42,206 nucleotides of DNA from Patescibacteria group bacterium (GTDB lineage: Bacteria > Patescibacteriota > Minisyncoccia > UBA6257 > HR35): the NCBI GenBank assembly GCA_040290225.1, contig PSMS01000002.1:1-42206 (forward strand), read 5' to 3'. Of the stretch, positions 2,303-25,903 are shown piece after piece. Positions within the stretch are counted from its first letter, which is position 1, and each line of letters begins with the position of its first letter. A model generated the notes under the pieces. It was not told where the DNA came from and did not search any database. It worked only from the letters and a program-made list of their open reading frames with translations. The translations under genes were made by a program, and so were the position numbers.

Positions 2303-2491
2303 TTATTTAATTTTAATAATTAAATAAATCAATAAAGAATCGACCACAGCAAAAAAAATTAAAAAGAAAAGAGAAAAAAGAATAACATTTAATGTTAAAT
2401 CAATAGTTTCTTTTTTAGAAAGCCAATTTATCTTTTTAACCTCAGAAATTGTTTCTTTTAAATATGTTTTTATTTTATCAAAAAAATTCAT
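2303..2491 (-). CDS. secE: preprotein translocase subunit SecE
   Basis: 62 aa with a single C-terminal TM helix, directly upstream of nusG. Confidence 0.8.
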
Positions 2492-5097: not shown

Positions 5098-5105
5098 CAA
5101 TATTT

Positions 5106-5114
5106 ATTATAACA
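5106..5114 (-). promoter_or_regulatory. putative extended -10 promoter TGTTATAAT, 8 nt upstream of the clpB ATG
   Basis: The minus strand reads aaaatatgTTATAATaaatattgATG. The box starts 8 nt after the 3' end of tRNA-Val. Confidence 0.45.
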
Positions 5115-5119: not shown

Positions 5120-5191
5120 TGGGCGGTGAAGGAATTGAACCTTCGACCTCCTCGCTGTGAACGAGGCGCTCTGCCGCTGAGCTAACCGCCC
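5120..5191 (-). tRNA. tRNA-Val (anticodon CAC), no encoded CCA
   Basis: Hand-folded cloverleaf: GGGCGGT/TA/GCTC-AGCGGCA-GAGC/G/CCTCG-TTCACAG-CGAGG/AGGTC/GAAGG-TTCAATT-CCTTC/ACCGCCC/A. It is a GC-rich island in AT-rich DNA. Confidence 0.9.
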
Positions 5192-5672: not shown

Positions 5673-6869
5673 TTAATTGACTTGACCTCTTAAAACTTCA
5701 ATAGCTTTTTTAATTACCGGATCATCTAATTCATTTTTTATTTTATCTTTTTCTATTTCTTTAACTTCAATATTCGGCTTAAGACCGTTTCCTTCAATCT
5801 TTTGACCACTTGGAATAATCCAATAAGCAACAGTAAGTTTTACCATTTTACCATCAACTCTAAAAACCTGTTGAACACTTCCTTTTCCATATGATTTTTC
5901 ACCAATAAGTTTAACATTTAAATTATCTCTCAAAGCACCAGCAAAAATTTCTGAAGCTGAAGCTGAACCTTTATTAATTAAAATAACCATTTTTAAATCA
6001 CTTAAAATTCCCGGTCCATTAGAAAAAATTTTTTCTTCTGATTTATCTCTTTTAATTTCTTTTAAAATCAATTTCCCACGTGGTAAGAAAAGCTCAGCCA
6101 TTTCAATAGCTGTATTTAAATAACCACCAGGATTATTTCTTAAATCAATAATCCAATATTTAGCTCCTCTATTTTTAAGTTTTAAGTAGGCTGAATAAAA
6201 TTCAGGATAAGTTTTTAAACTAAAAGAATTTATTTTTATATAACCAATATCTCTTAAAATTAGTTTTGACTTAACTAATGGAATATTAATAATTGTTCGA
6301 GTAATTTCAAAGTCTTTTGGTTCTATCCATTCATCTCGAAAAATAGTTAAAGTAACTTTAGTTCCTGGCTTTCCTCTAATTTTACTTACTGCTTCATCAA
6401 GAGACATATTTTCAGTATTTTCACCATTTATTTTTAATATTCTATCTCCAGGTTTTATACCCGCTTTTTCAGCTGGTGTTCCTTCAAGTGGAGCAATAAC
6501 AGTTAAAACACCGTTTTTAATTCCTATTTCCATTCCAACACCACCAAATGAACCAGATAAATCTTCTTCAAAAATTTTTGATTGATTTTCGTCTAAAATT
6601 TCTGAATAAGGATCATTTAAAGATCTTAAAAGTCCTCGAGCAGCTTCTAAAACAGCTTTTTCTTTATTTACTTTTTCCGGTTCAACAAAATAATTATTAA
6701 TAATCTCCCAGGTGCGATCAAAAAATCTTAAATCGTTATTAGTAAAATAAAGACTTGAAGATGTCTGAGCTGAAAGAAAAAAACTTCTAAATTCGTTAAA
6801 ATTTAAATAAAGGAAAATTAAAAATAAAGGCAGGGCGAAATAAATAAATTTTTTAAAATAATTTTTCAT
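5673..6869 (-). CDS. ctpA: carboxy-terminal processing protease (S41 family) with PDZ domain
   Basis: N-terminal TM/signal, PDZ (GIKPGDRILKINGE) and S41 core (GSASASEIFAGALRD, KSYGKGSVQ). Confidence 0.9.
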   Translation of the reverse strand: MKNYFKKFIYFALPLFLIFLYLNFNEFRSFFLSAQTSSSLYFTNNDLRFFDRTWEIINNYFVEPEKVNKEKAVLEAARGLLRSLNDPYSEILDENQSKIFEEDLSGSFGGVGMEIGIKNGVLTVIAPLEGTPAEKAGIKPGDRILKINGENTENMSLDEAVSKIRGKPGTKVTLTIFRDEWIEPKDFEITRTIINIPLVKSKLILRDIGYIKINSFSLKTYPEFYSAYLKLKNRGAKYWIIDLRNNPGGYLNTAIEMAELFLPRGKLILKEIKRDKSEEKIFSNGPGILSDLKMVILINKGSASASEIFAGALRDNLNVKLIGEKSYGKGSVQQVFRVDGKMVKLTVAYWIIPSGQKIEGNGLKPNIEVKEIEKDKIKNELDDPVIKKAIEVLRGQVN

Positions 6870-7533
6870 GGTTTATTTAAAATTAATAGGAATTGTTTTG
6901 GCTAAAGAAAAAATTAAGGAAAACGACGCTAATGTTTATATTTTAACAAAAAAAGATGGTATTATGAAAATATACGCTAAAGGACTTTTCCAATCAAAAA
7001 GTAAAAATTTATCCCTTATGGAGACAGGAAATTGGCTTCAATTGTATTTGTTTTCTGAAAATGAAAAATTACACCTTATTTCTTCCCTTCCCTTAAAGAC
7101 AAAATATTTATTTTTTGAAAAATACCCCTTAATTTATCTTTCTGTTTTTAAATTAATAAAAAAACTCGAAATTATTGAAACACCAGAATTTTTATGGCAA
7201 GTTTTAGAAAAATTAGATTTTTACATCAGACAAAATCCTGAAAATTTTTTCCATTGGTTTATTTATCATTTTTTAACATCTTTGGGGTACGAACCAGAAA
7301 TAGAAAAATGTTTTAAGTGCAATAAAAAACTTCAAAAAAATATCTTCTTTGATAATAAACTTTTTCTTTATTGTTCTCAGTGTAAAAAAGATGCTTATTT
7401 AAAAATTAAAGAAGATGATTTTAAAAAAGCATTAAAAATAAAAGATGAAAAAAGAGTCCCTAAGTCTTTACCAAAGTTTTTAAAAATTATTTTAAAAAAC
7501 TTCTTAATAAAAACGAAAACTGTGTTAAAATGA
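6868..7533 (+). CDS. recO: DNA repair protein RecO
   Basis: N-terminal OB-fold pattern (GIVLAKEKIKENDANVYILTKKDGIMKIYAKG) and a C-terminal CxxC...CxxC zinc motif (CFKCNKK...CSQCKK). Confidence 0.75.
   Translation: MVYLKLIGIVLAKEKIKENDANVYILTKKDGIMKIYAKGLFQSKSKNLSLMETGNWLQLYLFSENEKLHLISSLPLKTKYLFFEKYPLIYLSVFKLIKKLEIIETPEFLWQVLEKLDFYIRQNPENFFHWFIYHFLTSLGYEPEIEKCFKCNKKLQKNIFFDNKLFLYCSQCKKDAYLKIKEDDFKKALKIKDEKRVPKSLPKFLKIILKNFLIKTKTVLK
7523..7531 (+). promoter_or_regulatory. putative extended -10 (TGTTAAAAT), 8 nt upstream of the ATG at 7540
   Basis: The sequence tgTGTTAAAATgatttaaaATG overlaps the recO stop codon. Confidence 0.35.
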
Positions 7534-7539
7534 TTTAAA

Positions 7540-9384
7540 ATGACCCCCTTAGAGGAATTGGAAGAATATCTTGAAGGAAAAAAAGAAAGAAAAGATGAAT
7601 TTGGTTTACCAATCAAATCAAAAAAGAAAGTTATTTTTGAACCCAAAGAGGAAACGAAAAAATTTTTTATCCCTAAAAAAAGATTTTATTTTAATTTCGA
7701 TAAGTTTTTAAATGCTCTTTTATATCTTTCAGTTTTCATTTTTGCCTTGAGTCTAATTTTCCTTTCTTTTAATTTACTTTTAAAAAGAGAAAAACCTACA
7801 AATATTAAACTTTCAATTTTTGGTCCTTACGAAGTTAATTCTCTTGAAGAATCAATTTATACTCTTTTAATTGAAAATAATTCTAATCTTAATCTTGAAA
7901 ATGTAAGTTTAAGTATTATTCTTAGTGATGGAGGTTACTTTCTTGAAAATAATGAAAAAGAAAAAACAATTAATATAGGAAAACTAAAAGCAAATACAAG
8001 TACAAAAATTAATTTAGGAATTTTGTTTTTAAATGAAGGAAACAAAGAAGAAAAAATAAATGCTGTTTTAAGATACAAAATTGAAAATAAACCTTATTCT
8101 TTCGAAGATAAAAAAATTTTTTCTATTTTAGTAAAAAACCCTCCAATTCAAATATCTCCTGATTTACCTTCAAAAATCTATGTTTTTCAACCTTTTCAAT
8201 CTACTTTCAAAATTATTAATCTTTCAAAAGAAAATTTAGACAATTTAAATGTCAAAATTAATCTTCCCAATTATTTTAATTTAATTTCTTCATTGCCTTC
8301 TGGCGAAAATCTAAATTGGAACTTTTCAAATTTTTATTTAGGAGATAAAAAAACAATTACTCTAATTGGTTATTTTCAAGAAGAAACTCTTTCTCCCTAT
8401 TTTGATGTAGAGGTAAATTTTTCTTGGAAAGGAAAAAGTTTTTCTTTATTCAAAGAATCTTACAAAATCAATCTCTTACCAAGTCCAGTAAAAATTACTG
8501 TTACAACTAATCCCTTAACTGAAAGTGTTAATATAGGAAGTAATATTTATTACTCTATCCAAATTGAAAATAAAAGTAAAATCAATTTAAAAGAAAATTT
8601 AGTTAAGGTTACTTTTAACGATCTTTTTGATATCTCTTCAGTAAAAGTTGACAATGGTTATTTTTCATCTTTAGAAAATGCTGTTTATTTTACTTCACGT
8701 TATGAAGAAAAATTACTTAATTTAAAACCAAATGAAAAAGTTAGTTTAAGATTTAATATTAATCTTATTAAAAGCTATCCGATTTTGGGTGAAAAACAAA
8801 AAGATTTTTTGGCTAAAATAAAAATTGAATTTCGAACTCCAAGTATTCCTCCTGAAATTGAAATCCCCAATCTAACAGAATTTAAAATTAATCTAGAAGA
8901 TGATAAAAAAATTATAGGAAGCTATGAAATTAAAGATTTTCTGGTTTATAAAGACAAAATTTTCGAAAATTATGGACCAATTCCTTTTGTTAATGAAACA
9001 CCAACAACTTTAAGCTGGTATTTAAAAATAAAAACAATCGGAGAAGAATTTGAAAATTTCAGTTTAACAGGCAAACTTCCGCCTTATGTTAATTTAACTG
9101 GTAAAGTTGGAGGTGATGCAATTTTAGATAACCTAAAATTTGATCCAACAACAGGAGAGTTTTCTTATTCAATTAATAATTTAACAGCAAATATGGGTTA
9201 TACAGAACCAGAATTGACTTTAGTTTTTCAAATTGTTGTTAATCCTCCAGCCCAGATTTCTACTTATAATCTTGAGATCTTACCTTTAATTAAATATCAA
9301 ATAACTTCTAAATTTACAAAAATGAATTTTGCTGGCTATGTTGGCGGTCAATCTTCATCTGAAATTATTTCTGAATTAAAATAA
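7540..9384 (+). CDS. hypothetical N-terminally anchored surface protein with about 4-5 repeated beta-sandwich-like modules (CARDB/DUF11/COG1361-like, unverified)
   Basis: A charged cytoplasmic head of about 55 aa, one TM (LLYLSVFIFALSLIFLSFNLLL), then about 530 aa. That region has a recurring I.N.S...L.N(L/V).(V/L) strand pattern roughly every 100-120 aa. Confidence 0.6.
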   Translation: MTPLEELEEYLEGKKERKDEFGLPIKSKKKVIFEPKEETKKFFIPKKRFYFNFDKFLNALLYLSVFIFALSLIFLSFNLLLKREKPTNIKLSIFGPYEVNSLEESIYTLLIENNSNLNLENVSLSIILSDGGYFLENNEKEKTINIGKLKANTSTKINLGILFLNEGNKEEKINAVLRYKIENKPYSFEDKKIFSILVKNPPIQISPDLPSKIYVFQPFQSTFKIINLSKENLDNLNVKINLPNYFNLISSLPSGENLNWNFSNFYLGDKKTITLIGYFQEETLSPYFDVEVNFSWKGKSFSLFKESYKINLLPSPVKITVTTNPLTESVNIGSNIYYSIQIENKSKINLKENLVKVTFNDLFDISSVKVDNGYFSSLENAVYFTSRYEEKLLNLKPNEKVSLRFNINLIKSYPILGEKQKDFLAKIKIEFRTPSIPPEIEIPNLTEFKINLEDDKKIIGSYEIKDFLVYKDKIFENYGPIPFVNETPTTLSWYLKIKTIGEEFENFSLTGKLPPYVNLTGKVGGDAILDNLKFDPTTGEFSYSINNLTANMGYTEPELTLVFQIVVNPPAQISTYNLEILPLIKYQITSKFTKMNFAGYVGGQSSSEIISELK

Positions 9385-9390
9385 AATTAT

Positions 9391-10731
9391 ATGAAAGATT
9401 TAGAAACAATCATTAATCTTTCAAAAAACAGAGGGTTTGTTTTTCCTTCCCAAGAAATTTATGGTGGTTTAAGAGGAGTTTATGATTATGGTCCTTTGGG
9501 CGTACTTTTGAAAAATAAAATTAAAAGATTGTGGTTAAAAGATGTTGTTTTTAAAAGAGATAATATATTTTTGATAGAATCGAGTATTCTTGGTTTAAGA
9601 AAAACCTACGAAGCTTCTGGTCATATCGAACGTTTTTATGATCTCTTAGTAGAATGTAAAAGTTGTCATCAAAGATTTCGGTTTGATCATCTCTTAGAAG
9701 GAGAATATGGTGAAATTGAATATCAAAATGGTAAAGCTCTTTGTCCTCTCTGCAAAGGAGAATTAACTGAAAGCCGTACTTTTAATTTAATGTTTAAAAC
9801 TTATATTGGTCCGGTTGAAGAATTGGCTAATGAAGCTTATTTAAGACCTGAAACAGCCCAAGGGATGTTTTATAATTTCAAAAATGTTTTAAATTCAATG
9901 AGAACAAAATTGCCCTTTGGTATTGCTCAAATTGGTAAAGCTTTTCGAAATGAAATTACTCCTAAAAACTTTTTATTTAGAATTAGGGAATTTGAGCAAA
10001 TGGAATTAGAATTTTTTGTTTATCCAGAAGAAGCTAATAAATGGTTTGAATATTGGGTTGAAGAAAGATTTAATTGGTATTTAAAATTGGGTTTTAAAAA
10101 AGAAAATTTAAAAAAATATGTTTATCCTAAAGAAGAATTAGCTCATTATTCAGTCAACACTATTGATATTCTTTATAACTATCCTTTTGGTTTTGAAGAA
10201 TTAGAAGGAATTGCTAATCGAACTAATTATGATTTAAAACAACACATGGAGTTTTCCAAAGAAGATTTAACTTATTTTGATGAAAAGAGTAAAGAAAAAA
10301 TTATTCCTTATGTTATTGAACCATCAGTAGGTGTTGATAGATTATTTTTAGCAATTTTATGTGAATTTTATGATGAAGATGAAATTGAAGGAGAAAAAAG
10401 AAGAATTTTTAGATTTCCACCATTTTTAGCACCAATTGATTTAGCTGTTTTTCCTTTATTAACCAATCGTGATAATTTGATTCAAAAAGCAAAAGAGGTT
10501 TATCAATTTTTAAAAAATGAAACTGATTTTATGATTATTTATGATGAAACTGGTTCAATTGGTCGAAGATACCGAAGACAAGATGAAATAGGTACTCCTT
10601 TTTGTTTGACTATTGATTTTCAAACCCTCCAAGACAACACTTTAACAGTTAGAGATAGAGATACAACAAAACAAGAAAGAATAAAAATTGAGGAAATAAA
10701 AGAATATTTAAAAGAAAAATTTAAATTTTAA
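9391..10731 (+). CDS. glyQS: glycine--tRNA ligase (alpha2 GlyQS type)
   Basis: RGFVFPSQEIYGGLRGVYDYGPLG, RPETAQGMF and GKAFRNEITP class II motifs, with a C-terminal anticodon-binding domain. Confidence 0.95.
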   Translation: MKDLETIINLSKNRGFVFPSQEIYGGLRGVYDYGPLGVLLKNKIKRLWLKDVVFKRDNIFLIESSILGLRKTYEASGHIERFYDLLVECKSCHQRFRFDHLLEGEYGEIEYQNGKALCPLCKGELTESRTFNLMFKTYIGPVEELANEAYLRPETAQGMFYNFKNVLNSMRTKLPFGIAQIGKAFRNEITPKNFLFRIREFEQMELEFFVYPEEANKWFEYWVEERFNWYLKLGFKKENLKKYVYPKEELAHYSVNTIDILYNYPFGFEELEGIANRTNYDLKQHMEFSKEDLTYFDEKSKEKIIPYVIEPSVGVDRLFLAILCEFYDEDEIEGEKRRIFRFPPFLAPIDLAVFPLLTNRDNLIQKAKEVYQFLKNETDFMIIYDETGSIGRRYRRQDEIGTPFCLTIDFQTLQDNTLTVRDRDTTKQERIKIEEIKEYLKEKFKF

Positions 10732-10736
10732 ATTTG

Positions 10737-10810
10737 TGGGCGGGAGAGGACTCGAACCTCTAACCTTCGGCACGTCAAGCCGACGCTCTAACCAGTTGAG
10801 CTACCCGCCC
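10737..10810 (-). tRNA. tRNA-Val (anticodon GAC), no encoded CCA
   Basis: Cloverleaf: GGGCGGG/TA/GCTC-AACTGGTTA-GAGC/G/TCGGC-TTGACGT-GCCGA/AGGTT/AGAGG-TTCGAGT-CCTCT/CCCGCCC/A. Confidence 0.9.
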
Positions 10811-11180
10811 CTTTATTAAAATATTCTTTTATTTTATTTACTAAATCATCTAAAGAAACTTTTGCTTTTACTAAATATTCAATAGCTCCAAGTTTTAAAC
10901 CTTTTTCTATATCTTCTGGTTGACCCAACTGAGAAACTATTACAATCGGAACAGTTTTTAAATTTGGATCCTTGATTATTTCTTCTAATAAAGTAAAACC
11001 AGTTTTTTTAGGTAAGATTATATCTAAAATTATTAAATCTGGTAATTCTGTTAATATTTTTTGAAATCCTTCTTCACCATTTAGAGCACTTATTACTTCA
11101 AATCCTTCATTTTTTAATCTTTTCTCTAAAGCTAATCTTAAAAAATTATCGTCTTCAATTATTAAAATTTTTTTCGGCAT
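10788..11180 (-). CDS. stand-alone CheY-like response regulator receiver domain
   Basis: KILIIEDD, phospho-acceptor LIILDIILP, IVIVSQ and YLVKA receiver motifs. The ATG at 11178-11180 is preferred over the track start at 11222, which lies in the rRNA processing stem. The last 23 nt, including the TAG stop, lie inside tRNA-Val. Confidence 0.85.
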   Translation of the reverse strand: MPKKILIIEDDNFLRLALEKRLKNEGFEVISALNGEEGFQKILTELPDLIILDIILPKKTGFTLLEEIIKDPNLKTVPIVIVSQLGQPEDIEKGLKLGAIEYLVKAKVSLDDLVNKIKEYFNKGAGSSTG

Positions 11181-11187
11181 TAAGTTA

Positions 11188-11196
11188 ATTATAACA
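11188..11196 (-). promoter_or_regulatory. putative extended -10 promoter TGTTATAAT, 7 nt upstream of the response-regulator ATG
   Basis: The minus strand reads attTTGTTATAATtaacttaATG, between the 16S processing stem and the ATG. Confidence 0.45.
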
Positions 11197-11247: not shown

Positions 11248-11275
11248 CAGCTAAATTAAAGATATAAAGATTTTA

Positions 11276-12802
<1,527 letters not shown>

Positions 12803-12903: not shown

Positions 12904-12933
12904 ATTTTAACCTAAAATAAATTTTTTTGTCAA
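12904..12933 (-). promoter_or_regulatory. putative 16S rRNA promoter: TTGACA, 18-nt spacer, TAAAAT
   Basis: The minus strand reads ataatatTTGACAaaaaaatttattttaggtTAAAATatt. It has a perfect -35 (12928..12933) and lies about 50 nt upstream of the processing stem. Confidence 0.5.
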
Positions 12934-12940: not shown

Positions 12941-13384
12941 TTATCGCTGAATTGGAGAAGTTGGTGTTGAAGTTGGAGAGGAAGTTGGGGTTGGTCTTGG
13001 GGTTGGAGATGGAAGAACTTGAGATTTCATTTTAATAATATCAACGATTGGAGAGTTATCTTCTAAATAAGTCCAAAAAAGAATTTTAGACTGATTTAAA
13101 AGGATATAATTTTTTGGCTTCCAAACAGCATCACTAAATCTTTGTAATGAAATATTCCCATCATTACCAACATTAACAAAAACAGGTGATTTCAATTTGT
13201 TCCTTGGGAAAAAAGAAATTTCTCCAAAATAAATATTACCATTCTCTAAAACGACCATAGCATATTTTGGTTTTAAAACATTACTAAAAATAAAAACCAA
13301 ACTTAAACCTCCCAAAAAACCTATTAACGACCATAAAAAGAAAGTAAAAAATCTGTTTTGAAGAAATTTTCTTAAAACATTCAT
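12941..13384 (-). CDS. hypothetical single-pass membrane protein with Pro/Thr/Ser-rich C-terminal tail
   Basis: One N-terminal TM (FFTFFLWSLIGFLGGLSLVFIF) and the tail PSPTPRPTPTSSPTSTPTSP. The start overlaps the aspS stop (ATGA). Confidence 0.6.
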   Translation of the reverse strand: MNVLRKFLQNRFFTFFLWSLIGFLGGLSLVFIFSNVLKPKYAMVVLENGNIYFGEISFFPRNKLKSPVFVNVGNDGNISLQRFSDAVWKPKNYILLNQSKILFWTYLEDNSPIVDIIKMKSQVLPSPTPRPTPTSSPTSTPTSPIQR

Positions 13385-14802
13385 TTTTGAATATCTTTTT
13401 TAATTTCGAGACCTAATTCATTTAATTGTTCTTTTGAAATTTCACTTGGAGAATTCATTATTAAATCTCTTCCCTCACCAGTTTTAGGAAAAGCAATCAC
13501 TTCTCTTATATTAGGTTCATCTTCTAAAATCATCATTGTTCTATCAATACCAGGAGCAATTCCGCCATGAGGAGGAACACCATAAGAAAAAGCTTCAATT
13601 AAATGTCCAAATTTTTCAATTATCTCCTCCTTTTTATTTCCCATAACTTCAAAAACTTTAATTAAAACATCTGAATCGGTTGTTCTTATACTTCCACCAC
13701 CAATTTCATAACCATTACAAACAAAATCATATTGTTCGCTCAGTAAAATTTCGGGAGATGTTTCTAAAGCTTTTAGAAGTTCTTCTTTATCTTTTCTTCC
13801 ATCGGGTAATTTAGGTTGAGTAAATGGATGATGAACTGCATCCCATCTTTTTTCTGTCTCTTTCCATTCAAACATTGGAAAATCAATAATAAAAACAAAA
13901 GCAAGCTCATTAGGATTATTTGGATCTTTTCTTAAATCTGGTTTGTCGCTTCCGTAAATTCTAATTGCTTCTTCATAAGAAAGTCTTGGGAATGGTTTGT
14001 AAGTAATTTTTTTATGAGGATAAAGGGTTTCAACCATTTCAGTAAACATTTCTTCAACAAGATTTAAGATGTCATCACGAGTAATAAAACTCATTTCTAT
14101 ATCTAATTGAGTAAATTCTGGTTGACGATCTCCTCTCGGATCTTCATCACGAAGACATCGAGCTATTTGAAAATACCTTTCAAAACCAGCAACCATAAGT
14201 AGTTGTTTGTATTGTTGTGGTGATTGAGGTAAGGCATAAAATTTCCCTTTATAAATTCTACTTGGGACAACAAAATCTCTAGCTCCTTCTGGAGTTGATT
14301 TGGTAAGAAGAGGGGTTTCAATTTCAATAAAACCTCTCAAAGAAAGATAATTTCTAAAAAATGAAATAACTTTTTGACGATGAATTAAATTTTTTTGAAG
14401 TCTTCTTCTTCTCAAATCCAAATATCGATATTTTAATCTCAGGGCTTCATCAATCTCATAACCAGAAGTAGAAATATCAAAAGGTAGGGTTTTAGCCCTA
14501 GAAAGAATTTCCAATTCTTTTAATTCAACTTCAACCTCTCCTGTTTCTAAATCAGTATTAATTGAATGAAATGGTCTTTCTTTAACTATGCCCTTAATTT
14601 TTACAACATATTCAGGCTTAATTTCTTTAGCCAAAGAAAAATATTCATTTTCTTGATTAATAACAATTTGAACAATACCTGATCTATCTCTTAAATCTAA
14701 AAAAACAACCTTACCATGGTCACGAATGTTGTCAACAAATCCGAAAAGTTCAACCTCTTCATTAATTAGGTTTTTACATTCAATATTCCAAATTTTTTTC
14801 AT
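13381..14802 (-). CDS. aspS: aspartate--tRNA ligase, bacterial-type core lacking the GAD insertion domain
   Basis: OB-fold N-domain, FYALPQSPQQYKQLLM, CLRDEDPRGDRQPEFTQLDIEMSF and GGIAPGIDR motifs. The ATG at 14800-14802 (MKKIWNIE) is preferred; the track start at 14838 is TTG. Confidence 0.93.
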   Translation of the reverse strand: MKKIWNIECKNLINEEVELFGFVDNIRDHGKVVFLDLRDRSGIVQIVINQENEYFSLAKEIKPEYVVKIKGIVKERPFHSINTDLETGEVEVELKELEILSRAKTLPFDISTSGYEIDEALRLKYRYLDLRRRRLQKNLIHRQKVISFFRNYLSLRGFIEIETPLLTKSTPEGARDFVVPSRIYKGKFYALPQSPQQYKQLLMVAGFERYFQIARCLRDEDPRGDRQPEFTQLDIEMSFITRDDILNLVEEMFTEMVETLYPHKKITYKPFPRLSYEEAIRIYGSDKPDLRKDPNNPNELAFVFIIDFPMFEWKETEKRWDAVHHPFTQPKLPDGRKDKEELLKALETSPEILLSEQYDFVCNGYEIGGGSIRTTDSDVLIKVFEVMGNKKEEIIEKFGHLIEAFSYGVPPHGGIAPGIDRTMMILEDEPNIREVIAFPKTGEGRDLIMNSPSEISKEQLNELGLEIKKDIQK

Positions 14803-14809
14803 TGAAGAA

Positions 14810-14815
14810 ATTATA
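14810..14815 (-). promoter_or_regulatory. putative -10 box TATAAT, 7 nt upstream of the aspS ATG
   Basis: The minus strand reads agttTTATAATttcttcaATG. Confidence 0.45.
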
Positions 14816-14852
14816 AAACTTATATAAGCAAAAATCAAGAAAAAAATAAAAA

Positions 14853-14861
14853 TGATAAAAT
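14853..14861 (+). promoter_or_regulatory. putative extended -10 (TGATAAAAT), 7 nt upstream of the thiI ATG
   Basis: The sequence aaaaTGATAAAATtaaattgATG lies in the 66-nt aspS/thiI divergent spacer. Confidence 0.45.
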
Positions 14862-14868
14862 TAAATTG

Positions 14869-15987
14869 ATGGATTATTTATTAAAAACAAGCGAAATCAT
14901 TTTGAAAGGTAAAAATAGAAAATTTTTTGAGAAAATCTTAAAAGAAAATATTAAATTTAAACTTGGAAACAATTTAGAATTTATAAAAAATTTAGGAGGA
15001 ACATTTTGGGTTAAAACAAAAATTGAAGCTTTAAATGAACTAAAAAAAATTTTCGGACTTAGCAAAATATTAGAAGTTAAAATTTTTGAAAATTTAGAAG
15101 ATGTTTTCAAAAATTTAGATTTAAAAGATTATCAAGATTATTCTTTAGAAGTTAAAAGAAGCACTAAAGATTATCCTTTAAATTCTCTTCAAATAAAAGA
15201 AAGATTAAAAGATTTTATTAAAAATAAGTTTAATTTAGAAGAAAATAAAAATTCAAAAAATAAAATTTATCTTGAATATCGAAACAAAAAATTTTTTCTA
15301 TCTTTAAAAGAAGAAAATGCTTTTGGAGGTCTTCCTTTAAAAAGTAGTGGTAAAGGGCTTGTTCTTTTATCAGCTGGGTTTGATTCGCCAGTGGCTAGTT
15401 TTCTTTCAATGAAAAGAGGGTTGAAAGTTTATTTTGTCCATTTTCATAGCTATCCCCAAACAAGCATTAATTCAATTGAAAAAGTAAAAGAAATTGTCAA
15501 ATTATTAAATGAATACAATCTTGGTTCGGAGCTTTATTTAATTAATATTTTGGAAATTCAAAAATTTTATTATTTTAATGTTCCTAAAGAATATTTAGTA
15601 ATTTTTTACCGAAGAACAATGTACAGATTGGCTGAAAAATTAAAAAATGAATTAAATTTGGATTGTTTAATAACAGGAGAAAATTTAGGACAAGTAGCTT
15701 CTCAAACAATTCAAAACTTATTTGTTATTGAAAAAGCTATAAATTCTTTAGTTTTAAGACCCCTTATTGGTTTCAACAAACAAGAAATAATAGATTTAGC
15801 TAAAATAATCAAAACAGAAGAAATTTCAAAAAAGCCTTATGAAGATTGTTGCAATTTGTTTCTTCCTAAAAAAGTTAAAACAAAAGCAAATTTAGAGATT
15901 GTTGAAAAAATTGAAAAAAATATAGCAAAAGAACTTTTTAAATTAGAAGAAAAAGCTTATCAAGAAAAAGAAAAATATATTTTTTAA
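14869..15987 (+). CDS. thiI: tRNA 4-thiouridine synthase ThiI-like (THUMP + PP-loop ATPase)
   Basis: PP-loop LLSAGFDSPVA, GENLGQVASQT and an N-terminal THUMP-like region. The ATG is at 14869; the track start at 14866 is TTG. Confidence 0.85.
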   Translation: MDYLLKTSEIILKGKNRKFFEKILKENIKFKLGNNLEFIKNLGGTFWVKTKIEALNELKKIFGLSKILEVKIFENLEDVFKNLDLKDYQDYSLEVKRSTKDYPLNSLQIKERLKDFIKNKFNLEENKNSKNKIYLEYRNKKFFLSLKEENAFGGLPLKSSGKGLVLLSAGFDSPVASFLSMKRGLKVYFVHFHSYPQTSINSIEKVKEIVKLLNEYNLGSELYLINILEIQKFYYFNVPKEYLVIFYRRTMYRLAEKLKNELNLDCLITGENLGQVASQTIQNLFVIEKAINSLVLRPLIGFNKQEIIDLAKIIKTEEISKKPYEDCCNLFLPKKVKTKANLEIVEKIEKNIAKELFKLEEKAYQEKEKYIF

Positions 15988-15989
15988 TT

Positions 15990-15995
15990 TATAAT
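15990..15995 (+). promoter_or_regulatory. putative -10 box TATAAT, 8 nt upstream of the gatA ATG
   Basis: The sequence tttaatTTATAATaaattgtaATG comes directly after the thiI stop. Confidence 0.35.
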
Positions 15996-16003
15996 AAATT
16001 GTA

Positions 16004-17401
16004 ATGGATTTTAGAAATTTATCCGCCTCTCAATTTAAAAATCTTATTTTAAAAAATAATCCAAAAGAAGTTTACGAAAGTTATTTAAGTTGGCTCAAAA
16101 AAGAAGACGAAAACGTAAAAGGTTTTATAACTTTTACAGAAGAATTGGTCTTTCAAACTTTAGAAGATTTAAAAAATAAAAGTAAAGATCTGCCTTTATA
16201 TGGAGTACCGATAGCTATTAAAGATAATATTTTAGTTAAAGGTTTCAAATGCACAGCTGGATCAAAAATTTTAGAAAATTACATTGCTCCTTATGATGCT
16301 ACTGTTATTAAAAAATTAAAAGAAGCTGGAGCGGTTATTGTTGGTAAAACAAATCTCGATGAGTTTGCTATGGGATCTTCAACAGAAAACTCAGCTTTCT
16401 TTCCAACTTATAATCCATTTGACAAAGAAAGGGTTCCTGGTGGTTCTTCAGGAGGATCAGCTGCTCTGGTCGGCGCTGGTTTAGTGCCAATTTCTTTAGG
16501 TTCAGATACAGGAGGGTCTATCAGACAACCTGCGGGTTTTTGCGGAATTTTCGGATTAAAACCAACTTATTCATCTGTTTCCAGATATGGCTTAATAGCT
16601 ATGGCTTCTTCTTTAGATGTTATTGGTCCTTTTGCTCGAGATTTGGAAGATTTAAAAACAGTATTTAGAATTATAAGAGGTAAAGATAAAATGGATAGTA
16701 CAACTCAAGTTTATCAAGAAAAAATCAAAGAAGTTAAAAAAATAGGAGTGATTGAAGAGGTTTTTGGTTTAGGTTTAGATGAACCTACTCGAGCCTCTTT
16801 TGAAAAATTCTTAGATAATTTAAAAAACTATCAAATTAAAAAAATTTCTTTACCATCATTACCTTATGCTCTTTCAGTCTATTATCTTATAATGACAGCT
16901 GAAGTAAGTTCTAATTTAGCTCGTTATGACGGTATTCGTTATGGTTATAGCTTTCCCACTAACGATTTATTAGAAAAATATTTTCAGTCAAGAGAAATTG
17001 GTTTTGGCAAAGAAGTAAAAAGAAGAATTTTATTAGGAACTTTTGTTTTATCTCAGGGCTATTATGAAGCTTATTATAAAAAAGCCTTAAGGGTAAGAAG
17101 ATTCATTTATAATGATTTTCAAAGAGCTTTTAAAGAAGTTGATTTGATTTTAATGCCGACATCACCAACAATACCCTTCAGACTTGGAGAAAAAACAACT
17201 GATCCTCTTTCAATGTATTTGTCAGATATTTTTACTGTTCCTATTAATTTAGCTTATTTACCAGGACTTTCTTTCAATATTGATTTTGTTGAGATTGATA
17301 ACAAAAAATTACCAATAGGTGCTCAGATTGTTAGTAATTTATTCGAAGAAGAGACAATTTTTAAGTTTTTAGAAGAAATTGGTTATACAAAATGCCAGTA
17401 A
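16004..17401 (+). CDS. gatA: Asp-tRNA(Asn)/Glu-tRNA(Gln) amidotransferase subunit A
   Basis: Amidase signature GGSSGGSAALV...GSDTGGSIRQPA. Confidence 0.93.
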   Translation: MDFRNLSASQFKNLILKNNPKEVYESYLSWLKKEDENVKGFITFTEELVFQTLEDLKNKSKDLPLYGVPIAIKDNILVKGFKCTAGSKILENYIAPYDATVIKKLKEAGAVIVGKTNLDEFAMGSSTENSAFFPTYNPFDKERVPGGSSGGSAALVGAGLVPISLGSDTGGSIRQPAGFCGIFGLKPTYSSVSRYGLIAMASSLDVIGPFARDLEDLKTVFRIIRGKDKMDSTTQVYQEKIKEVKKIGVIEEVFGLGLDEPTRASFEKFLDNLKNYQIKKISLPSLPYALSVYYLIMTAEVSSNLARYDGIRYGYSFPTNDLLEKYFQSREIGFGKEVKRRILLGTFVLSQGYYEAYYKKALRVRRFIYNDFQRAFKEVDLILMPTSPTIPFRLGEKTTDPLSMYLSDIFTVPINLAYLPGLSFNIDFVEIDNKKLPIGAQIVSNLFEEETIFKFLEEIGYTKCQ

Positions 17402-17961: not shown

Positions 17962-19219
17962 GAGTAATTATTTTTCCTTCTCGCCAAATCTTTAAATTAA
18001 CCCTTTCACCAACTTTCTTTTTTCTTATTATCTGAGATAAACTATTTCTTTCATCAATTTTTTGTCCATCAACTTCTAATATAATATCTCCTTCTTTAAT
18101 CCCTGCCCTTTGAGCTGGTGAGTTATCAATAACAGCTTTATCATTTTTTAATTCAGTGTAAACATAAGCTCCGTAATCATATGGCAAATTAAATTTTTCT
18201 TTAAGCTTTTCATTTAAAATAACATATTTAATTCCTAAAAATGGAATTTCTACCTTTCCCTTAGCTCTAATATCTTCTAACATTCTTTTAGCTCGATTAA
18301 TTGGAATAGCAAAACCTATATTTTGAGCTCCAGAAACAATAGCGGTATTTACTCCAATAACCTCTCCATAAATATTAATTAATGGTCCGCCTGAATTACC
18401 ATAATTAATAGCTGCATCAGCCTGGATCATATCTTCCAATCTTTCAATATTTCCCGAAGAATCTGAAGCGACAATATTTCTTTTTAAACCAGAAATAACA
18501 CCAAAACTAACGGTATTTTGAAATTCACCTAAAGCATTACCAATAGCAATAACAAATTGTCCTATTTTTAAATTATCTGAATTTCCCAATTTTAAAGTTG
18601 GTAAATTATAGGCATCTATTTTAAGAATTGCTAAATCATCAACTGGATGTTTAGCGACAATCTTTGCTTTAAATTTTCTTCCATCATTTAAATAAACAAT
18701 ATATTCAGCTTTTTCGTCACTAACAACATGTTTGTTGGTAATAATATAGCCATCAGAAGAAACAATAAAACCTGTACCACCACCAACTTCTTCTTTTTGA
18801 TAACCTTTTTTTTGGTATTGGGGAATTTGAAATTCAAATTTAAAAAATGGTCTAATTTCTGGAGGGATATCAAATTCTTCAAAAGGATTAGTATAATATC
18901 TTTCAATAATTGGTACGTATTTACTAATAACTATACTAACAACAGCAGGCGAAACTTTATCAACAATTTTAGTAATTTCTCCTTCTAAATAAGGTAAAAA
19001 AATTAATTCTTTTTTAGAAACTTCTAAATATTTATTGAGAAATTGTTGATCCTGATTATTTTGAAAACTTTGAATTGTTTGATTTCGACTAAAAAATTTT
19101 AAAATATTATCTAAAAATTCATTGGTCTGAGAAAAAATAAAAGGCTGAGCAACAATAAATTTAAAACTCAAAAATATTAACAAAAATATTAGAATTGAGA
19201 TCAAAAATATCTTTTTCAT
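17915..19219 (-). CDS. htrA: HtrA/DegP-family serine protease with PDZ domain
   Basis: Trypsin-like triad context (TNKHVV, DLAILKI, GNSGGPLIN) plus a C-terminal PDZ (GIKEGDIILEVDGQKI). Confidence 0.9.
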   Translation of the reverse strand: MKKIFLISILIFLLIFLSFKFIVAQPFIFSQTNEFLDNILKFFSRNQTIQSFQNNQDQQFLNKYLEVSKKELIFLPYLEGEITKIVDKVSPAVVSIVISKYVPIIERYYTNPFEEFDIPPEIRPFFKFEFQIPQYQKKGYQKEEVGGGTGFIVSSDGYIITNKHVVSDEKAEYIVYLNDGRKFKAKIVAKHPVDDLAILKIDAYNLPTLKLGNSDNLKIGQFVIAIGNALGEFQNTVSFGVISGLKRNIVASDSSGNIERLEDMIQADAAINYGNSGGPLINIYGEVIGVNTAIVSGAQNIGFAIPINRAKRMLEDIRAKGKVEIPFLGIKYVILNEKLKEKFNLPYDYGAYVYTELKNDKAVIDNSPAQRAGIKEGDIILEVDGQKIDERNSLSQIIRKKKVGERVNLKIWREGKIITLTVVLGSLPENLLSQ

Positions 19220-19230
19220 TTTCGGTTCAT

Positions 19231-19239
19231 ATTATATCA
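19231..19239 (-). promoter_or_regulatory. putative extended -10 (TGATATAAT), 11 nt upstream of the htrA ATG
   Basis: The minus strand reads ttTGATATAATatgaaccgaaaATG. It overlaps the stop of the upstream desulfurase gene. Confidence 0.35.
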
Positions 19240-20383
19240 AAAATTTTTTGAGCATTTCAATTACATAATCAATATCTTCTTTGGAAGTTTCTAAACCAAA
19301 TGAAAATCTTAAACTTCTTTTTGCTCTTTCAGGATCATTAAAAATTTCTTTAACCATATAACTTGGTTCAGCTGATCGCGATTTACAAGCAGTTCCTGGA
19401 GAAATATAAATTTTATTAAGATCTAAATATAAAAAAATATCTTGGGCTAATTTTGTTGGAAAATAAATATTCAAAATTTTAGGGCTCGATTCTTCTAAGT
19501 TTGTATTAATTTCAATTGGTAAATTATTTTTTTTAATTTTTTCAATAAAATAGTCTCTAATTGCCTTTAAATGGTTTACATTTTTTTCTTTTTCTTCAAA
19601 AGCTAATTCCATTGCTTTAGCAAAGCCAACAATCAAAGGTACAGCTTCAGTTCCTCCTCTTAAGTCATATTCATGACCACTTCCAGAAATCAATCTCATT
19701 AAAGGTGTATTCGCTTTTACATATAAACAAGCTATTCCCTTAGGACCATAAATTTTATGAGAAGAAAGAGTCATTAAATCGCATTTTAAATTATTAACAT
19801 TTAAATCTTCAGTCAAACCAGCTTGAGCAGCATCAATATGAAAGTAAATTTTTCTTTTAAACTTTTCTAAAAACTCTCCTATTTCCTTAATTTTTTGACG
19901 ATTACCCAGTTCACTATTAATATAATGCAAAGTAATTAAAAGTGTGTTTTCTTTTATTGATTCTTTTATTTTTTCTAAACTTATTAAACCATTCATTTCG
20001 GGCTTGAGATAAGTTGTTTCAATTATCTCTAGGCCTTCTAAATCAGCTAAGGTATCGAGAACCGAAGGATGTTCAATAGTTGAAGAAATTACATGAATTT
20101 TTTTATAGCCCTTTAAAAAATAAAAATAAAAAATTAAACCCTTAATAGCTAAATTATTAGCTTCAGTTGAAGAAGCAGTAAAAATAATTTCTTTTAATTC
20201 ATTGGCTTTTAAAATTTCTTTTATTTTATTTCTTGATTCATCAATTGCTTTTAAAGCTTTTTGTCCAAAAGAATGTAGGCTGACAGGATTAGCAAAAATT
20301 TCTCGAAAATAAGGATTCATAGCTTCAAAAACCTCCTTTCTTAAAGGAGTTGTTGCGGCGTAATCTAGATAAACTTCTTTCAT
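19232..20383 (-). CDS. cysteine desulfurase (NifS/IscS-like class V aminotransferase)
   Basis: PLP lysine motif SSHKIYGPKG and an active-site Cys loop SPGTACKS. Confidence 0.88.
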   Translation of the reverse strand: MKEVYLDYAATTPLRKEVFEAMNPYFREIFANPVSLHSFGQKALKAIDESRNKIKEILKANELKEIIFTASSTEANNLAIKGLIFYFYFLKGYKKIHVISSTIEHPSVLDTLADLEGLEIIETTYLKPEMNGLISLEKIKESIKENTLLITLHYINSELGNRQKIKEIGEFLEKFKRKIYFHIDAAQAGLTEDLNVNNLKCDLMTLSSHKIYGPKGIACLYVKANTPLMRLISGSGHEYDLRGGTEAVPLIVGFAKAMELAFEEKEKNVNHLKAIRDYFIEKIKKNNLPIEINTNLEESSPKILNIYFPTKLAQDIFLYLDLNKIYISPGTACKSRSAEPSYMVKEIFNDPERAKRSLRFSFGLETSKEDIDYVIEMLKKFLI

Positions 20384-20390
20384 AATTTAT

Positions 20391-20396
20391 ATTATA
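20391..20396 (-). promoter_or_regulatory. putative -10 box TATAAT, 7 nt upstream of the desulfurase ATG
   Basis: The minus strand reads gatttTATAATataaattATG, just after the ftsA stop. Confidence 0.35.
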
Positions 20397-20399
20397 AAA

Positions 20400-23576: not shown

Positions 23577-24149
23577 TTAAAAAATCTTATTGACTAATTC
23601 TTTAAAAGATAAATGGAACAAGACTCGACCCACAATCCTTTCTTTTTTTAATGGTCCCCATTGTCTTGAATCTGAACTTAATTCTCTATTATCTCCTAAA
23701 ACAAAGTATTCATCTTTTCCTAAAGTAATTTCTTTTTTTCCAGTTGTATAATGGCCTTTTAAATAATCTTCTTTTAATTCAAAACCATTAGGATTTTCTT
23801 TATTAAAAATAAAAACTTTCGAATTTTCTATAACAACTTTTTCTTCAGGAAGACCAATAACTCTCTTTATATAGTAAACATTATTATCAAAAGGTGGTTT
23901 AAAAATAATAACCTCTCCTCTTTGAGGTTCCCGAAGTCGATAAGTTATTTTATCAACAATTAAGTAATCAAAAGAATGATAATTTGGTTCCATACTACTT
24001 CCCTTAACAAAAAAAGGTTCAAAAAGATAAAATCTTATAGGCAAAACAACAAAAATGAAAATGAAAAGAATTTCTAAAAAATCATAAAATAATTTAGATT
24101 TTTTTAACTTTAAAAAAATTTTTTTCAGTTTTTCGAAAATATTTATCAT
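23577..24149 (-). CDS. lepB: signal peptidase I
   Basis: N-terminal TM, catalytic GSSMEPN, YIKRVIGLP and GDNRELSSDSR boxes. Confidence 0.9.
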   Translation of the reverse strand: MINIFEKLKKIFLKLKKSKLFYDFLEILFIFIFVVLPIRFYLFEPFFVKGSSMEPNYHSFDYLIVDKITYRLREPQRGEVIIFKPPFDNNVYYIKRVIGLPEEKVVIENSKVFIFNKENPNGFELKEDYLKGHYTTGKKEITLGKDEYFVLGDNRELSSDSRQWGPLKKERIVGRVLFHLSFKELVNKIF

Positions 24150-24187
24150 TATTATTTAAAAAATAATGAAGTTAAAATTATTATAAC

Positions 24188-24754
24188 ATGAAAAAAGACG
24201 GAATTAAAATTGTTTTCGGTTTAGGTAACGAAGGAAAAGAATTTCAAAAAACACCTCATAATATTGGAAAAGATATTATTGATTTTTATCTTAAAGAAAA
24301 AAAAGAAACCAAAACTTGCTATTATGACTTTTACAATAATTTAATTTTAGCCTCGAATAAAAGTTTTATGAATGAATCAGGAAGTGCTGTTAAAGAAATT
24401 TTAGAAAAATTCAAATTAAAACCAGAAAACCTATTAGTTGTTCATGACGAAGCTGATATTATTTTCCCTTATTTTAAATTTTCTTTTAAAAGCGGAAGTG
24501 CTGGTCATAAAGGAGTAGAATCAGTTATTAAAAAATTAAAAAGTAAAAATTTTTGGAGATTAAGGATTGGGATTCAAAAAGAAAAAAGAATTAAGGCAGA
24601 AAAAATCATTTTAGAAAAATGGGGTAAAAAGGAAGAAGAAATAATAGAAAAAATTAAAAAGAAATTTAAAATAATTTTAGATAAACTTGAAAATTATTTA
24701 CCTAATGAATTAAATCTACCAAAAGATTTTTTCTTCAATGAAAAGAATTATTGA
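24188..24754 (+). CDS. pth: peptidyl-tRNA hydrolase
   Basis: IVFGLGNEGKEFQKTPHNIG and VVHDEADI motifs. Confidence 0.88.
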   Translation: MKKDGIKIVFGLGNEGKEFQKTPHNIGKDIIDFYLKEKKETKTCYYDFYNNLILASNKSFMNESGSAVKEILEKFKLKPENLLVVHDEADIIFPYFKFSFKSGSAGHKGVESVIKKLKSKNFWRLRIGIQKEKRIKAEKIILEKWGKKEEEIIEKIKKKFKIILDKLENYLPNELNLPKDFFFNEKNY

Positions 24755-25718
24755 AGAAAAATTAAAAGATAATCTAAAAATAAAAGAAATTTTTGAAAGA
24801 ATATTTGAAATTTATGAATATGATTTAAAATTAAATGATCACCGAGCCAGAGAACTTTTTCCTAATCTTGTCGAACAAAAAATAACAATTGTTAAAGATA
24901 AAATTTTAGAAAAAGAAACAGTTTTTAATATTTCTCGAGCTAAAAGACCTATCCCTCAAGAAAAAGAAGAAATTTCTGATGAATATGATCCATTTTGCAA
25001 CGGTGATTCAAAAACAATTAAAGACGAAATTGGATTTTTAGAAAATAATTCAGCCAAAATAGTTGCTAATATTTCTAAAATGGCTCCTTATCATAGTCTT
25101 TTGTATTTTAAAAAACACGATTTTGATGATCTTAATGAAAATGATTTTGTTTTAGCTATTGATTTAGCTTCAAAATGGTTTGAAGAAATAAAAAATAAGT
25201 TTCAAACAAAAACAGAAATTTTAATATGGAATTTTCATTATCGGGCTGCCGCTTCAATTCTTCATCCCCATTTTCAACTTTTAGCTTATTACCACAATTT
25301 AAATTTAATCGAAAGTTTAAAAAATAAATTTGAGAAATATAAAAGTAATTATCAAAGTGATTATTTAGAAGATTATTTTTATTTAATGAAATTTTTAGGT
25401 TTAGGAAAAGAATTTGGAAATTTTAAAATTTGGTTAAACTTAACTCCTCGAAAAGAAAAAGAAATTAATTTTTATGGAATCTTAAATGAAAGAAATTCAA
25501 GAATTTTATGGCAAACAATTTTTCTTTTAACAAAATCAGGGACGGAAACTTTTAATCTTTTTTATATTTTTGAAAATGATCTATTTAAGAACTTAGGATT
25601 TTTTGTTGATCGAGGACCAAAAAATAAAAAAATTAGTGATTTTGGGACCTTAGAAGTTTTTTCTCATTCGGTTGTTTCTTATAATCCCTTTGAGTTTGCT
25701 AAAATTATTTTTCAATAA
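24738..25718 (+). CDS. GalT-like HIT-superfamily nucleotidyltransferase/phosphorylase (specificity unknown)
   Basis: NISRAKRP, DPFCNGD and SILHPHFQLLA (H-x-H-x-Q) resemble the galactose-1-phosphate uridylyltransferase branch. Confidence 0.5.
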   Translation: MKRIIEEKLKDNLKIKEIFERIFEIYEYDLKLNDHRARELFPNLVEQKITIVKDKILEKETVFNISRAKRPIPQEKEEISDEYDPFCNGDSKTIKDEIGFLENNSAKIVANISKMAPYHSLLYFKKHDFDDLNENDFVLAIDLASKWFEEIKNKFQTKTEILIWNFHYRAAASILHPHFQLLAYYHNLNLIESLKNKFEKYKSNYQSDYLEDYFYLMKFLGLGKEFGNFKIWLNLTPRKEKEINFYGILNERNSRILWQTIFLLTKSGTETFNLFYIFENDLFKNLGFFVDRGPKNKKISDFGTLEVFSHSVVSYNPFEFAKIIFQ

Positions 25719-25903
25719 GTCGAAGTAGGAAATTGGATAGTTGAAGTATTAGCTTCTTCAGGTAAAACTTCTTCAGGAATTTCTGAAGGAGAATAAATTT
25801 GAGGATATTTTTGATAAGCTTTCATATTTAACAAACTAAAAAAAATTAAAAAACTTAAAATAACAATCCCAATAAGAATTCGGTTTAATTTATTAACAGT
25901 CAT
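25712..25903 (-). CDS. hypothetical small membrane protein
   Basis: 63 aa with one TM (ILIGIVILSFLIFFSLL). The ATG overlaps the infB stop (ATGA). Confidence 0.4.
   Translation of the reverse strand: MTVNKLNRILIGIVILSFLIFFSLLNMKAYQKYPQIYSPSEIPEEVLPEEANTSTIQFPTSTY

Follow-up and report, generated by a model that had tools for sequence, protein, structure and literature searches.

Promoter-type −10 hexamers directly upstream of start codons point to leaderless translation initiation in a Parcubacteria-type bacterium without an anti-Shine-Dalgarno sequence

How are translation start sites chosen in a bacterium whose 16S rRNA has no anti-Shine-Dalgarno (anti-SD) sequence? The question is raised by a stretch of 42,206 nucleotides (nt) of DNA (contig PSMS01000002.1, positions 1 to 42,206; hereafter the window), which is densely packed with genes, has a GC content of 27% and carries a full-length bacterial 16S rRNA gene (11276..12802, minus strand) as well as two tRNA-Val genes. 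The closest relatives of its AspS are found in metagenome-assembled genomes labelled Parcubacteria, Paceibacterota, Giovannonibacteria or Nealsonbacteria, some of these labels being inconsistent, at identities of up to 62% in a genome collection and up to 83% in a metagenome collection. Because of these labels the source organism is most likely a tiny-genome bacterium within the Candidate Phyla Radiation (CPR, Patescibacteria) of Parcubacteria type. An original prediction made on this DNA held that −10 promoter boxes stand a few nucleotides before the start codons of the first genes of transcription units, suggesting leaderless mRNAs. Our analysis indicates that start codons in the window are probably selected through leaderless mRNAs made from promoters that abut the AUG, combined with reinitiation at overlapping genes, in a lineage that lacks the anti-SD.

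The arrangement is clearest in the divergent spacer between aspS and thiI (14803-14868, 66 nt), where a box lies 7 nt before each ATG, precisely as had been reported. The 13 further sites named earlier were likewise recovered at the same coordinates and spacings, and gatC, nusG and the gene at 33348..33863 (g33863) add three more. The sites, with the distance from box to ATG given as the spacer, are as follows.

14800..14818, minus strand: aspS, ATG 14802..14800, TATAAT 14815..14810, 7-nt spacer; a −35-like TTGATT (14838..14833) lies 17 nt further upstream
14853-14861, plus strand: thiI, extended −10 TGATAAAAT, 7-nt spacer to ATG 14869-14871
5095..5114, minus strand: clpB, extended −10 TGTTATAAT with TATAAT, box at 5106, 8-nt spacer
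6851..6870, plus strand: recO, TAAAAT, box at 6854 and inside the divergent S41-peptidase gene, 8-nt spacer
7523..7542, plus strand: gene 7540..9384 (g7540), extended −10 TGTTAAAAT of TAAAAT type, 8-nt spacer; recO stop 6 nt away
9374..9393, plus strand: glyQS-type tRNA ligase, TAAAAT, box at 9377 and overlapping the stop codon of the upstream gene, 8-nt spacer, 6-nt upstream gap
11178..11196, minus strand: response regulator, extended −10 TGTTATAAT with TATAAT, box at 11188, 7-nt spacer
15987..16006, plus strand: gatA, TATAAT, box at 15990, 8-nt spacer
19217..19239, minus strand: htrA, extended −10 TGATATAAT of TATAAT type, box at 19231, TTGAAA −35 at 18 nt, 11-nt spacer; predicted leader about 4-5 nt
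20381..20399, minus strand: cysteine desulfurase (iscS), TATAAT, box at 20391, 7-nt spacer
24170..24190, plus strand: pth, TAAAAT, box at 24173, 9-nt spacer
27684..27703, minus strand: gatC, extended −10 TGATAAAAT, box at 27695, 8-nt spacer
33861..33879, minus strand: g33863, TAAAAT, box at 33871, 7-nt spacer
34915..34935, minus strand: pilM, TATAAT, box at 34927, 9-nt spacer
36262..36280, plus strand: tpiA, TAAAAT, box at 36265, 7-nt spacer
39072..39089, minus strand: ligA, TATAAT, box at 39081, 6-nt spacer
42004..42021, minus strand: gene 41380..42006, TATAAT, box at 42013, 6-nt spacer
2298..2318, minus strand: nusG, TAAAAT, box at 2310, 9-nt spacer; the gene adjoins secE, 2 nt after it

Profiles from NCBIfam and Pfam agree with the gene names proposed earlier (clpB, aspS, thiI, gatA, htrA, pilM, ligA, pth, tpiA, recO) and also back gatC, a class II Gly-type tRNA ligase (glyQS), an IscS/NifS-type desulfurase and a stand-alone receiver-domain response regulator. 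The chosen ATG starts align at approximately position 1 of these family profiles; that of the response regulator is the second ATG of its open reading frame (ORF), which fits position 1 of the PhoB profile and the orthologues in two related metagenome loci, L081 and L082. All starts are ATG, which has no evidential value since the start-calling rule itself favoured ATG.

The pattern of boxes before ATGs exceeds chance by far. When each TA[AT]AAT on either strand was set against the downstream ATGs that open ORFs of at least 80 codons, a comparison free of annotation, the counts were 2, 7, 7 and 3 at spacers of 6, 7, 8 and 9 nt and 0-2 at the other spacers from 0 to 30 nt. TA[AT]AAT occurs 6-9 nt before 17 of 43 gene starts compared to 16 of 870 other ATGs (1.8%; Fisher p=6e-16), and perfect TATAAT before 8 of 43 compared to 6 of 870 (p=3e-8), which bears out the expectation that such hexamers would be enriched at a fixed short distance from starts compared with internal ATGs as well as with other spacings. 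For the 25 non-coupled genes, whose upstream 40 nt have 18% GC, shuffles of these 40 nt gave on average 0.45 TATAAT and 0.91 TA[AT]AAT, where 8 and 16 were observed, and these numbers were equalled in 0 of 20000 shuffles. The eight perfect TATAAT had been called unlikely by chance on a rough estimate of 0.2% per position; this was conservative, as the 77 copies on both strands of the window correspond to about 0.09%. As a method control, the histogram was also made for 50 kb of E. coli K-12, where it gave a peak of Shine-Dalgarno (SD) motifs at 4-7 nt and no −10 peak, the opposite of the window. A generic scan of the window for sigma-70 promoters showed no enrichment (85 matches vs 83 +/- 11 in shuffles), and the informative part of such a scan is the position relative to the ATG only.

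The boxes also follow the arrangement of the genes. They are present in 16 of the 25 separated (non-coupled) genes, meaning those that are divergent, follow an RNA gene or lie at least 6 nt from the upstream gene, vs one of the 20 overlapping or abutting (coupled) genes, with gaps of 2 nt or less (Fisher p=4e-5). The exception is nusG, whose box, the sole one on an abutting gene, may be an internal promoter or a chance match. At gaps of 6-23 nt a gene has its own box, partly inside the upstream coding sequence (g7540, glyQS, g33863, tpiA, htrA, gatA, iscS, ligA, gatC). The geometry had been said to recur at nearly every gene that begins a transcription unit; the fixed geometry is real, but its reach is about two-thirds of the non-coupled genes (the 16 at 6-9 nt, or 17 with htrA).

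Several properties of the hexamers are those of promoter elements. Across the 18 aligned sites T-12, A-11, A-9, A-8 and T-7 are invariant and variation is found at −10 alone (A or T), TG stands at −15/−14 in 6 of 18 boxes vs 5% expected (p=2e-4), T-15 is present in 13 of 18 and G-14 in 7 of 18 (p=0.007). The 16S rRNA gene provides an independent reference for the TAAAAT variant.

12933..12904, minus strand: 16S rRNA promoter TTGACA-N18-TAAAAT, with a perfect TTGACA −35; no ORF follows

This promoter carries TAAAAT without any ORF, and therefore TAAAAT is a bona fide −10 hexamer in this organism. The −35 elements are otherwise weak and inconsistent, and were not counted as evidence except at the 16S, aspS and htrA promoters. 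Judged by these features, the boxes are best described as predicted sigma-70-type −10 elements, often of the extended form TGnTAWAAT with a weak −35, and not as a general start-codon signal. In 49 bacteria the start of transcription lies, as a central value, 7 bp downstream of the −10 element (PMC12641261).

Divergent gene pairs leave little room for leaders. The spacer between the signal peptidase gene and pth is 38 nt, and the S41 peptidase (5673..6869, minus strand) and recO (6868..7533, plus strand) overlap by their start codons in the palindrome CATG (6867-6870), so that each putative promoter would lie inside the other gene; this −2 arrangement is kept in L081 (15402..15403). In L082 the aspS/thiI spacer is only 31 nt; aspS is preceded there by TGTTAAAAT at 7 nt, and thiI, whose orthology is confirmed at 52% identity, by TAAAAT at 9 nt. 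By their length alone, such short or negative spacers would be too small for two promoters plus two leaders.

The ribosomal side of the question concerns the 3′ end of the 16S rRNA.

11276..11289, minus strand: 16S rRNA 3′ tail, GGACCAAAUCUGUU, where the consensus is GGAUCACCUCCUUU; the anti-SD CCUCC is absent

An Infernal alignment (RF00177) of this end confirms the missing anti-SD noted in the original prediction, and helix 45 is intact despite the loss of CCUCC. The relatives with a 16S gene beside aspS have similar tails (L081, GGACCAAATCTG; L082, GGAACAAATCTT). The mRNA side agrees with this: the SD-like tetramers AGGA, GGAG and GAGG have no positional peak upstream of the ATGs of the window, an SD tetramer is found at the right place in 2 of 40 mechanically called genes, the duplex energy to a canonical anti-SD is not enriched upstream of starts, and no gene class shows an SD peak, coupled and internal genes included. 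An alternative anti-SD was also considered, in which the native 16S tail, either short or extended by UUUAAAA, would pair with the 18 nt preceding each start; it was rejected, as the energies were weaker than at control ATGs. Past the canonical 16S 3′ end (11255..11289, minus strand) a stretch (G/T)NTTTAAAA is common to the window, L081 (about 10970) and L082 (about 3870); it may be part of the mature rRNA or a processing site, and no complementarity to gene upstream regions was found.

The coupled genes, of which one in 20 has a box, overlap or adjoin their neighbours. Same-strand gaps in the window are bimodal, with 20 cistrons at 2 nt or less, none at 3-5 nt and the remainder at 6 nt or more. 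The 20 coupled cistrons, which include secE and a 63-amino-acid ORF, both found in gaps between called genes, comprise seven ATGA overlaps, two TAATG overlaps, other genes that overlap by 8-17 nt and some that are 0-2 nt apart, and the ATGA coupling of internal genes previously described is thereby upheld and extended to other forms of close junction. The ATGA and TAATG junctions are these.

2488..2491, minus strand: ATGA, clpB stop and start of secE, a coupled cistron without a −10 box
13381..13384, minus strand: ATGA, aspS stop and start of the gene at 12941..13384
25900..25903, minus strand: ATGA, IF2 stop and start of the 63-amino-acid ORF
29732..29735, minus strand: ATGA, stop of the pilT-like ATPase and start of pilC
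33348..33351, minus strand: ATGA inside the pilus operon
35584..35587, plus strand: ATGA, comF-like stop and rsmE-like start
40667..40670, minus strand: ATGA between two pilin-like genes
1322..1326, minus strand: TAATG, uL11 stop and thymidylate kinase start
1753..1757, minus strand: TAATG, nusG and uL11

Termination-reinitiation at overlapping stop and start codons (ATGA, TAATG) is a known form of translational coupling.

The same geometry recurs in related CPR loci, for which 160 loci (2.1 Mb) were taken from two independent collections, one of genome contigs and one of metagenome contigs. The distance from TGnTAnnnT to ATG peaks at spacers of 6 and 7 nt, with counts of 56 and 39 in the genome contigs and 44 and 31 in the metagenome contigs over a background of about 8; TAnAAT and TATAAT behave similarly, the TGnTAnnnT peak being the sharpest. 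SD-like motifs in the 160 loci show codon periodicity only and no peak. Many aspS orthologues have a −10 box 6-9 nt upstream and a minority have GGAGG instead. The relation to gene spacing is again seen, with a box on 3-4% of genes where the gap is 2 nt or less and on 21-26% where it is 6-100 nt. Under a mechanical rule a box is found on 38% of window genes vs about 13% in 80 loci of the genome collection. As for 16S genes, none was found in the first 80 loci, and the metagenome set contains only those of L081 and L082. These counts indicate that the predicted −10-to-ATG geometry is widespread in these CPR bacteria, of which the window would be an unusually clean example.

The mechanism that we propose joins these observations as follows. 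RNA polymerase would start approximately 7 bp past the −10 element, and the transcript would then begin 0-3 nt from the A of the AUG. The original prediction placed mRNA starts at or within 1-2 nt of the AUG; this stands in so far as the spacers of 6-9 nt predict leaders of 0-3 nt, which would not always be of zero length. The 5′-terminal AUG would recruit the ribosome for the first cistron, as in leaderless initiation of the 70S/IF2 type, and it is the likely recruiting signal because there are neither an anti-SD nor SD motifs. Downstream cistrons would need no ribosome-binding site, as ribosomes that have just terminated at the overlapping or adjacent stop could reinitiate. Where a cistron has no such overlap, only a promoter of its own would give it a 5′-terminal AUG, which would explain the boxes inside upstream genes at 6-nt gaps. 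The net effect would be that transcription initiation sets the translation start site. What is observed is the motif with its spacing and its confinement to non-coupled genes, the lack of both anti-SD and SD signals, and the recurrence in relatives; we infer the transcription start positions, and with them the term leaderless, from the box geometry, and we also infer 70S/IF2-type initiation and reinitiation. An SD-free regime of initiation, as originally suggested, is supported in that boxes are enriched, the 16S rRNA has no anti-SD, SD motifs are lacking and internal genes are coupled; within the window leaderless initiation would be predominant, not exclusive. A further-reaching possibility is that this Parcubacteria lineage gave up internal initiation by the 30S/SD route wholly, with starts made only at promoter-generated 5′ ends or by reinitiation and with AUGs internal to read-through transcripts remaining silent; we regard this as conceivable but somewhat doubtful.

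Some observations weigh against leaderless initiation as the prevailing mode. Eight of the 25 non-coupled genes have no strong box at 6-9 nt (htrA, at 11 nt, is not among them). About five of the non-coupled genes have no more than weak TAnnnT boxes or boxes matching at 5 of 6 positions, at 5-10 nt. The weak boxes of bL9 (TGTAAT, 5 nt), the S41 peptidase (TAATTT, 10 nt), a bS21-like gene (TAAATT, 9 nt) and IF2 (TATTTT, 9 nt) are indistinguishable from background, and two pilin-like genes and a comF-like gene have no convincing box upstream. If the comF-like gene (34868..35587, plus strand) is called at its first ATG, it shares 50 nt (34868..34917) with the 5′ end of pilM, which is divergent to it, and no other in-frame ATG or −10 box was found that would resolve the overlap. 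For the signal peptidase gene (23577..24149, minus strand) the sole strong upstream box, TGTTATAAT at 24180..24188, lies 30 nt from the ATG; a leader of about 23 nt without an SD seems to be present there, and it appears that another SD-independent mode must exist too. This box overlaps the start codon of pth on the opposite strand. In this very AT-rich DNA there is some overlap between TAA stop codons and the TAAAAT-type boxes at gaps of 6-10 nt. Spacers in the window have a mode of 7-8 nt, one nucleotide more than in the relatives (6-7 nt), and the longer mode may imply 1-3 extra 5′ nucleotides on many transcripts. In E. coli, such short 5′ extensions lower the translation of leaderless mRNAs. 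L081, the closest relative, which shares the 16S tail, has several orthologous boxes at 10-11 nt, and none was found for its recO orthologue. Finally, the fractions of leaderless and SD-motif genes per locus are uncorrelated (rho −0.03), a comparison that is underpowered, with values near the noise floor.

The most serious rival accepts the boxes as real promoters but supposes that leaderless transcripts are minor and that most protein is made from longer or read-through mRNAs by SD-independent leadered initiation, using for instance unstructured A/U-rich 5′ regions with S1, as in Bacteroidetes. Read-through transcripts are indeed likely, since gaps of 6-23 nt are too small for terminators and terminator-like hairpins are not enriched in the window (13 vs 9.2 +/- 3.5 in shuffles); upstream regions have just 18% GC and at least one gene has a predicted SD-less leader. 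Yet if leadered initiation were sufficient, there would be no reason for 16 of 25 separated genes to keep a box at 6-9 nt, or for boxes to persist within the preceding coding sequence where the gap is 6 nt, nor would it account for the coupled genes being without one (1 of 20). Group B in GeneMarkS-2 is defined by a motif that first and internal genes have in common (PMC6028130); such a motif is also missing, and we consider this rival improbable. Another rival, which we regard as about half as credible as this one, takes TAWAAT to act as RNA, either enhancing translation as an A/U-rich element or pairing with the altered 16S tail, and not as a DNA promoter. The box does lie at the usual distance of a ribosome-binding site, and L081 and L082 conserve the UUUAAAA that lies downstream of the 16S tail, but the duplex energies with the native tail, short or long, run in the wrong direction, the invariant positions are those of a −10 hexamer (T-12, A-11, T-7), TG is enriched exactly at −15/−14, the same hexamer with a perfect TTGACA precedes the ORF-less 16S gene, and the motif is missing from coupled genes.

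That the pattern is an artefact, either of the 27% GC composition or of starts picked to fit boxes, could be argued from the generic sigma-70 matches, which do not exceed those in shuffles, and from the response regulator, whose start was taken at the second ATG of the ORF. It is scarcely credible against a peak that persists in the annotation-free histogram, that withstands both the local-composition shuffle (0 of 20000) and the internal-ATG control (p=6e-16), and that recurs in the two independent sets of relatives while being absent in E. coli; the starts are moreover backed by profile alignments and orthologues. Leaderless mRNAs from AUG-abutting promoters combined with overlap reinitiation remain, in our judgement, the likely explanation.

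Two known phenomena come together in this proposal. Leaderless genes are generally recognised by a Pribnow box that stands 6-8 nt before the start codon, as it does in group C of GeneMarkS-2, comprising Actinobacteria (Mycobacterium tuberculosis) and Deinococcus-Thermus (D. deserti), with 25-50% of operons predicted to be leaderless (PMC6028130). The window resembles group C in its Pribnow-type −10 at a short distance before first genes, where SD is absent, and in the AUG predicted to lie at or beside the 5′ end; it differs in a defining feature, as the 16S rRNA of group C keeps the anti-SD and its internal and leadered genes use SD-type ribosome-binding sites, whereas the window has neither and its internal genes overlap or adjoin their upstream neighbours. 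Of the separated genes in the window 64-68% have a strong box, and the lineage, a CPR/Parcubacteria one at 27% GC, is also distinct from group C. The other phenomenon is that about half of Parcubacteria have lost the anti-SD motif; these overlap the group lacking ribosomal protein uL1, and SD helices are presumably not formed in them (Tsurumaki et al., 2022, RNA 28:1041; PMC9297842). The window is similar to these anti-SD-lacking Parcubacteria (PMC9297842) in its 16S 3′ end without CCUCCU, in the absence of uL1 from its canonical place after uL11, and in its nearest metagenome-assembled genomes of Parcubacteria/Paceibacterota type. Within the window, nusG (1755..2300, minus strand) and rplK/uL11 (1324..1755, minus strand) are followed by thymidylate kinase (761..1324, minus strand) and not by rplA/uL1, an order matching that of the uL1-lacking group of Parcubacteria, which is also without the anti-SD (PMC9297842). 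That study does not address the start mechanism or contain the word 'leaderless' (PMC9297842); the −10-to-ATG geometry and the coupling rule are added here.

Archaeal leaderless transcription (group D; Haloferax, Sulfolobus) offers a parallel in that most transcription units are leaderless and 5′-end-dependent initiation is the main mode, as would be the case in the window; unlike in archaea, where the TATA/BRE box lies about 26 nt upstream, the element here is a bacterial sigma-70 −10 at 6-9 nt. Coupled starts in model bacteria usually keep an SD inside the upstream gene, unlike those of the window, where none is detectable and there is no anti-SD to read it. In Bacteroidetes the anti-SD is sequestered in the ribosome. 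The window shares with Bacteroidetes (group B) the lack of SD motifs and A/U-rich sequence upstream of starts, but Bacteroidetes keep the anti-SD, have leadered mRNAs and place one motif before first and internal genes alike, whereas here the element is a −10 hexamer found at non-coupled genes only.

Other features of the window bear on the gene content and layout. No 23S gene directly follows the 16S gene, which has 56% GC vs the 27% GC of the genome; in its place are the response regulator (10788..11180, minus strand) and tRNA-Val(GAC) (10736..10810, minus strand), and the final 23 nt of the response-regulator ORF overlap this tRNA gene. The clpB box starts 6 nt past the 3′ end of tRNA-Val(CAC) (5120..5191, minus strand), and a −35 contact, if any, would be inside the tRNA gene, which itself begins 1 nt after the bL9 stop. 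IF2 (25900..27369, minus strand) has only 489 amino acids, with the GTPase domain from about residue 14 and without the typical N-terminal domains of bacterial IF2; the ORF joined to it by the ATGA overlap (25712..25903, minus strand) encodes 63 amino acids and is membrane-like. A complete type IV pilus-like cluster (27710..34917, minus strand) consists of pilM, three small membrane proteins, PilB- and PilT-type ATPases, pilC and a prepilin peptidase, and a second run (39094..41302, minus strand) holds pilin-like genes with KxxFTLIE-type N-termini.

Both leaderless-rich genomes and the loss of the anti-SD in Parcubacteria are known; what appears to be new is their proposed combination, with overlap coupling, as the main logic of start-site choice. 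A full-text literature search, of incomplete coverage, found no paper linking leaderless genes with anti-SD loss in Patescibacteria, CPR, Parcubacteria or Saccharibacteria, and on Shine-Dalgarno in the CPR it found only the account of the loss by Tsurumaki et al. Parcubacteria are a very large uncultured part of the bacterial tree, start choice in their anti-SD-less half is not addressed in the searchable literature, and the sequence evidence gives a concrete, testable answer as to where translation starts there. If the proposal is true, CPR gene calling would be affected, as to which start codon is chosen and also which model is applied, the promoter map would be unusually dense, with about one promoter per 2.3 kb and many inside coding sequence, and these organisms would be a natural bacterial system in which to study SD-independent, 5′-end-dependent initiation. 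Should the more tentative idea of full abandonment also hold, every non-overlapping cistron would require its own promoter, and this would be the first bacterial lineage in which start selection is essentially 5′-end-dependent genome-wide, which would explain how the anti-SD-less half of Parcubacteria translate their genes.

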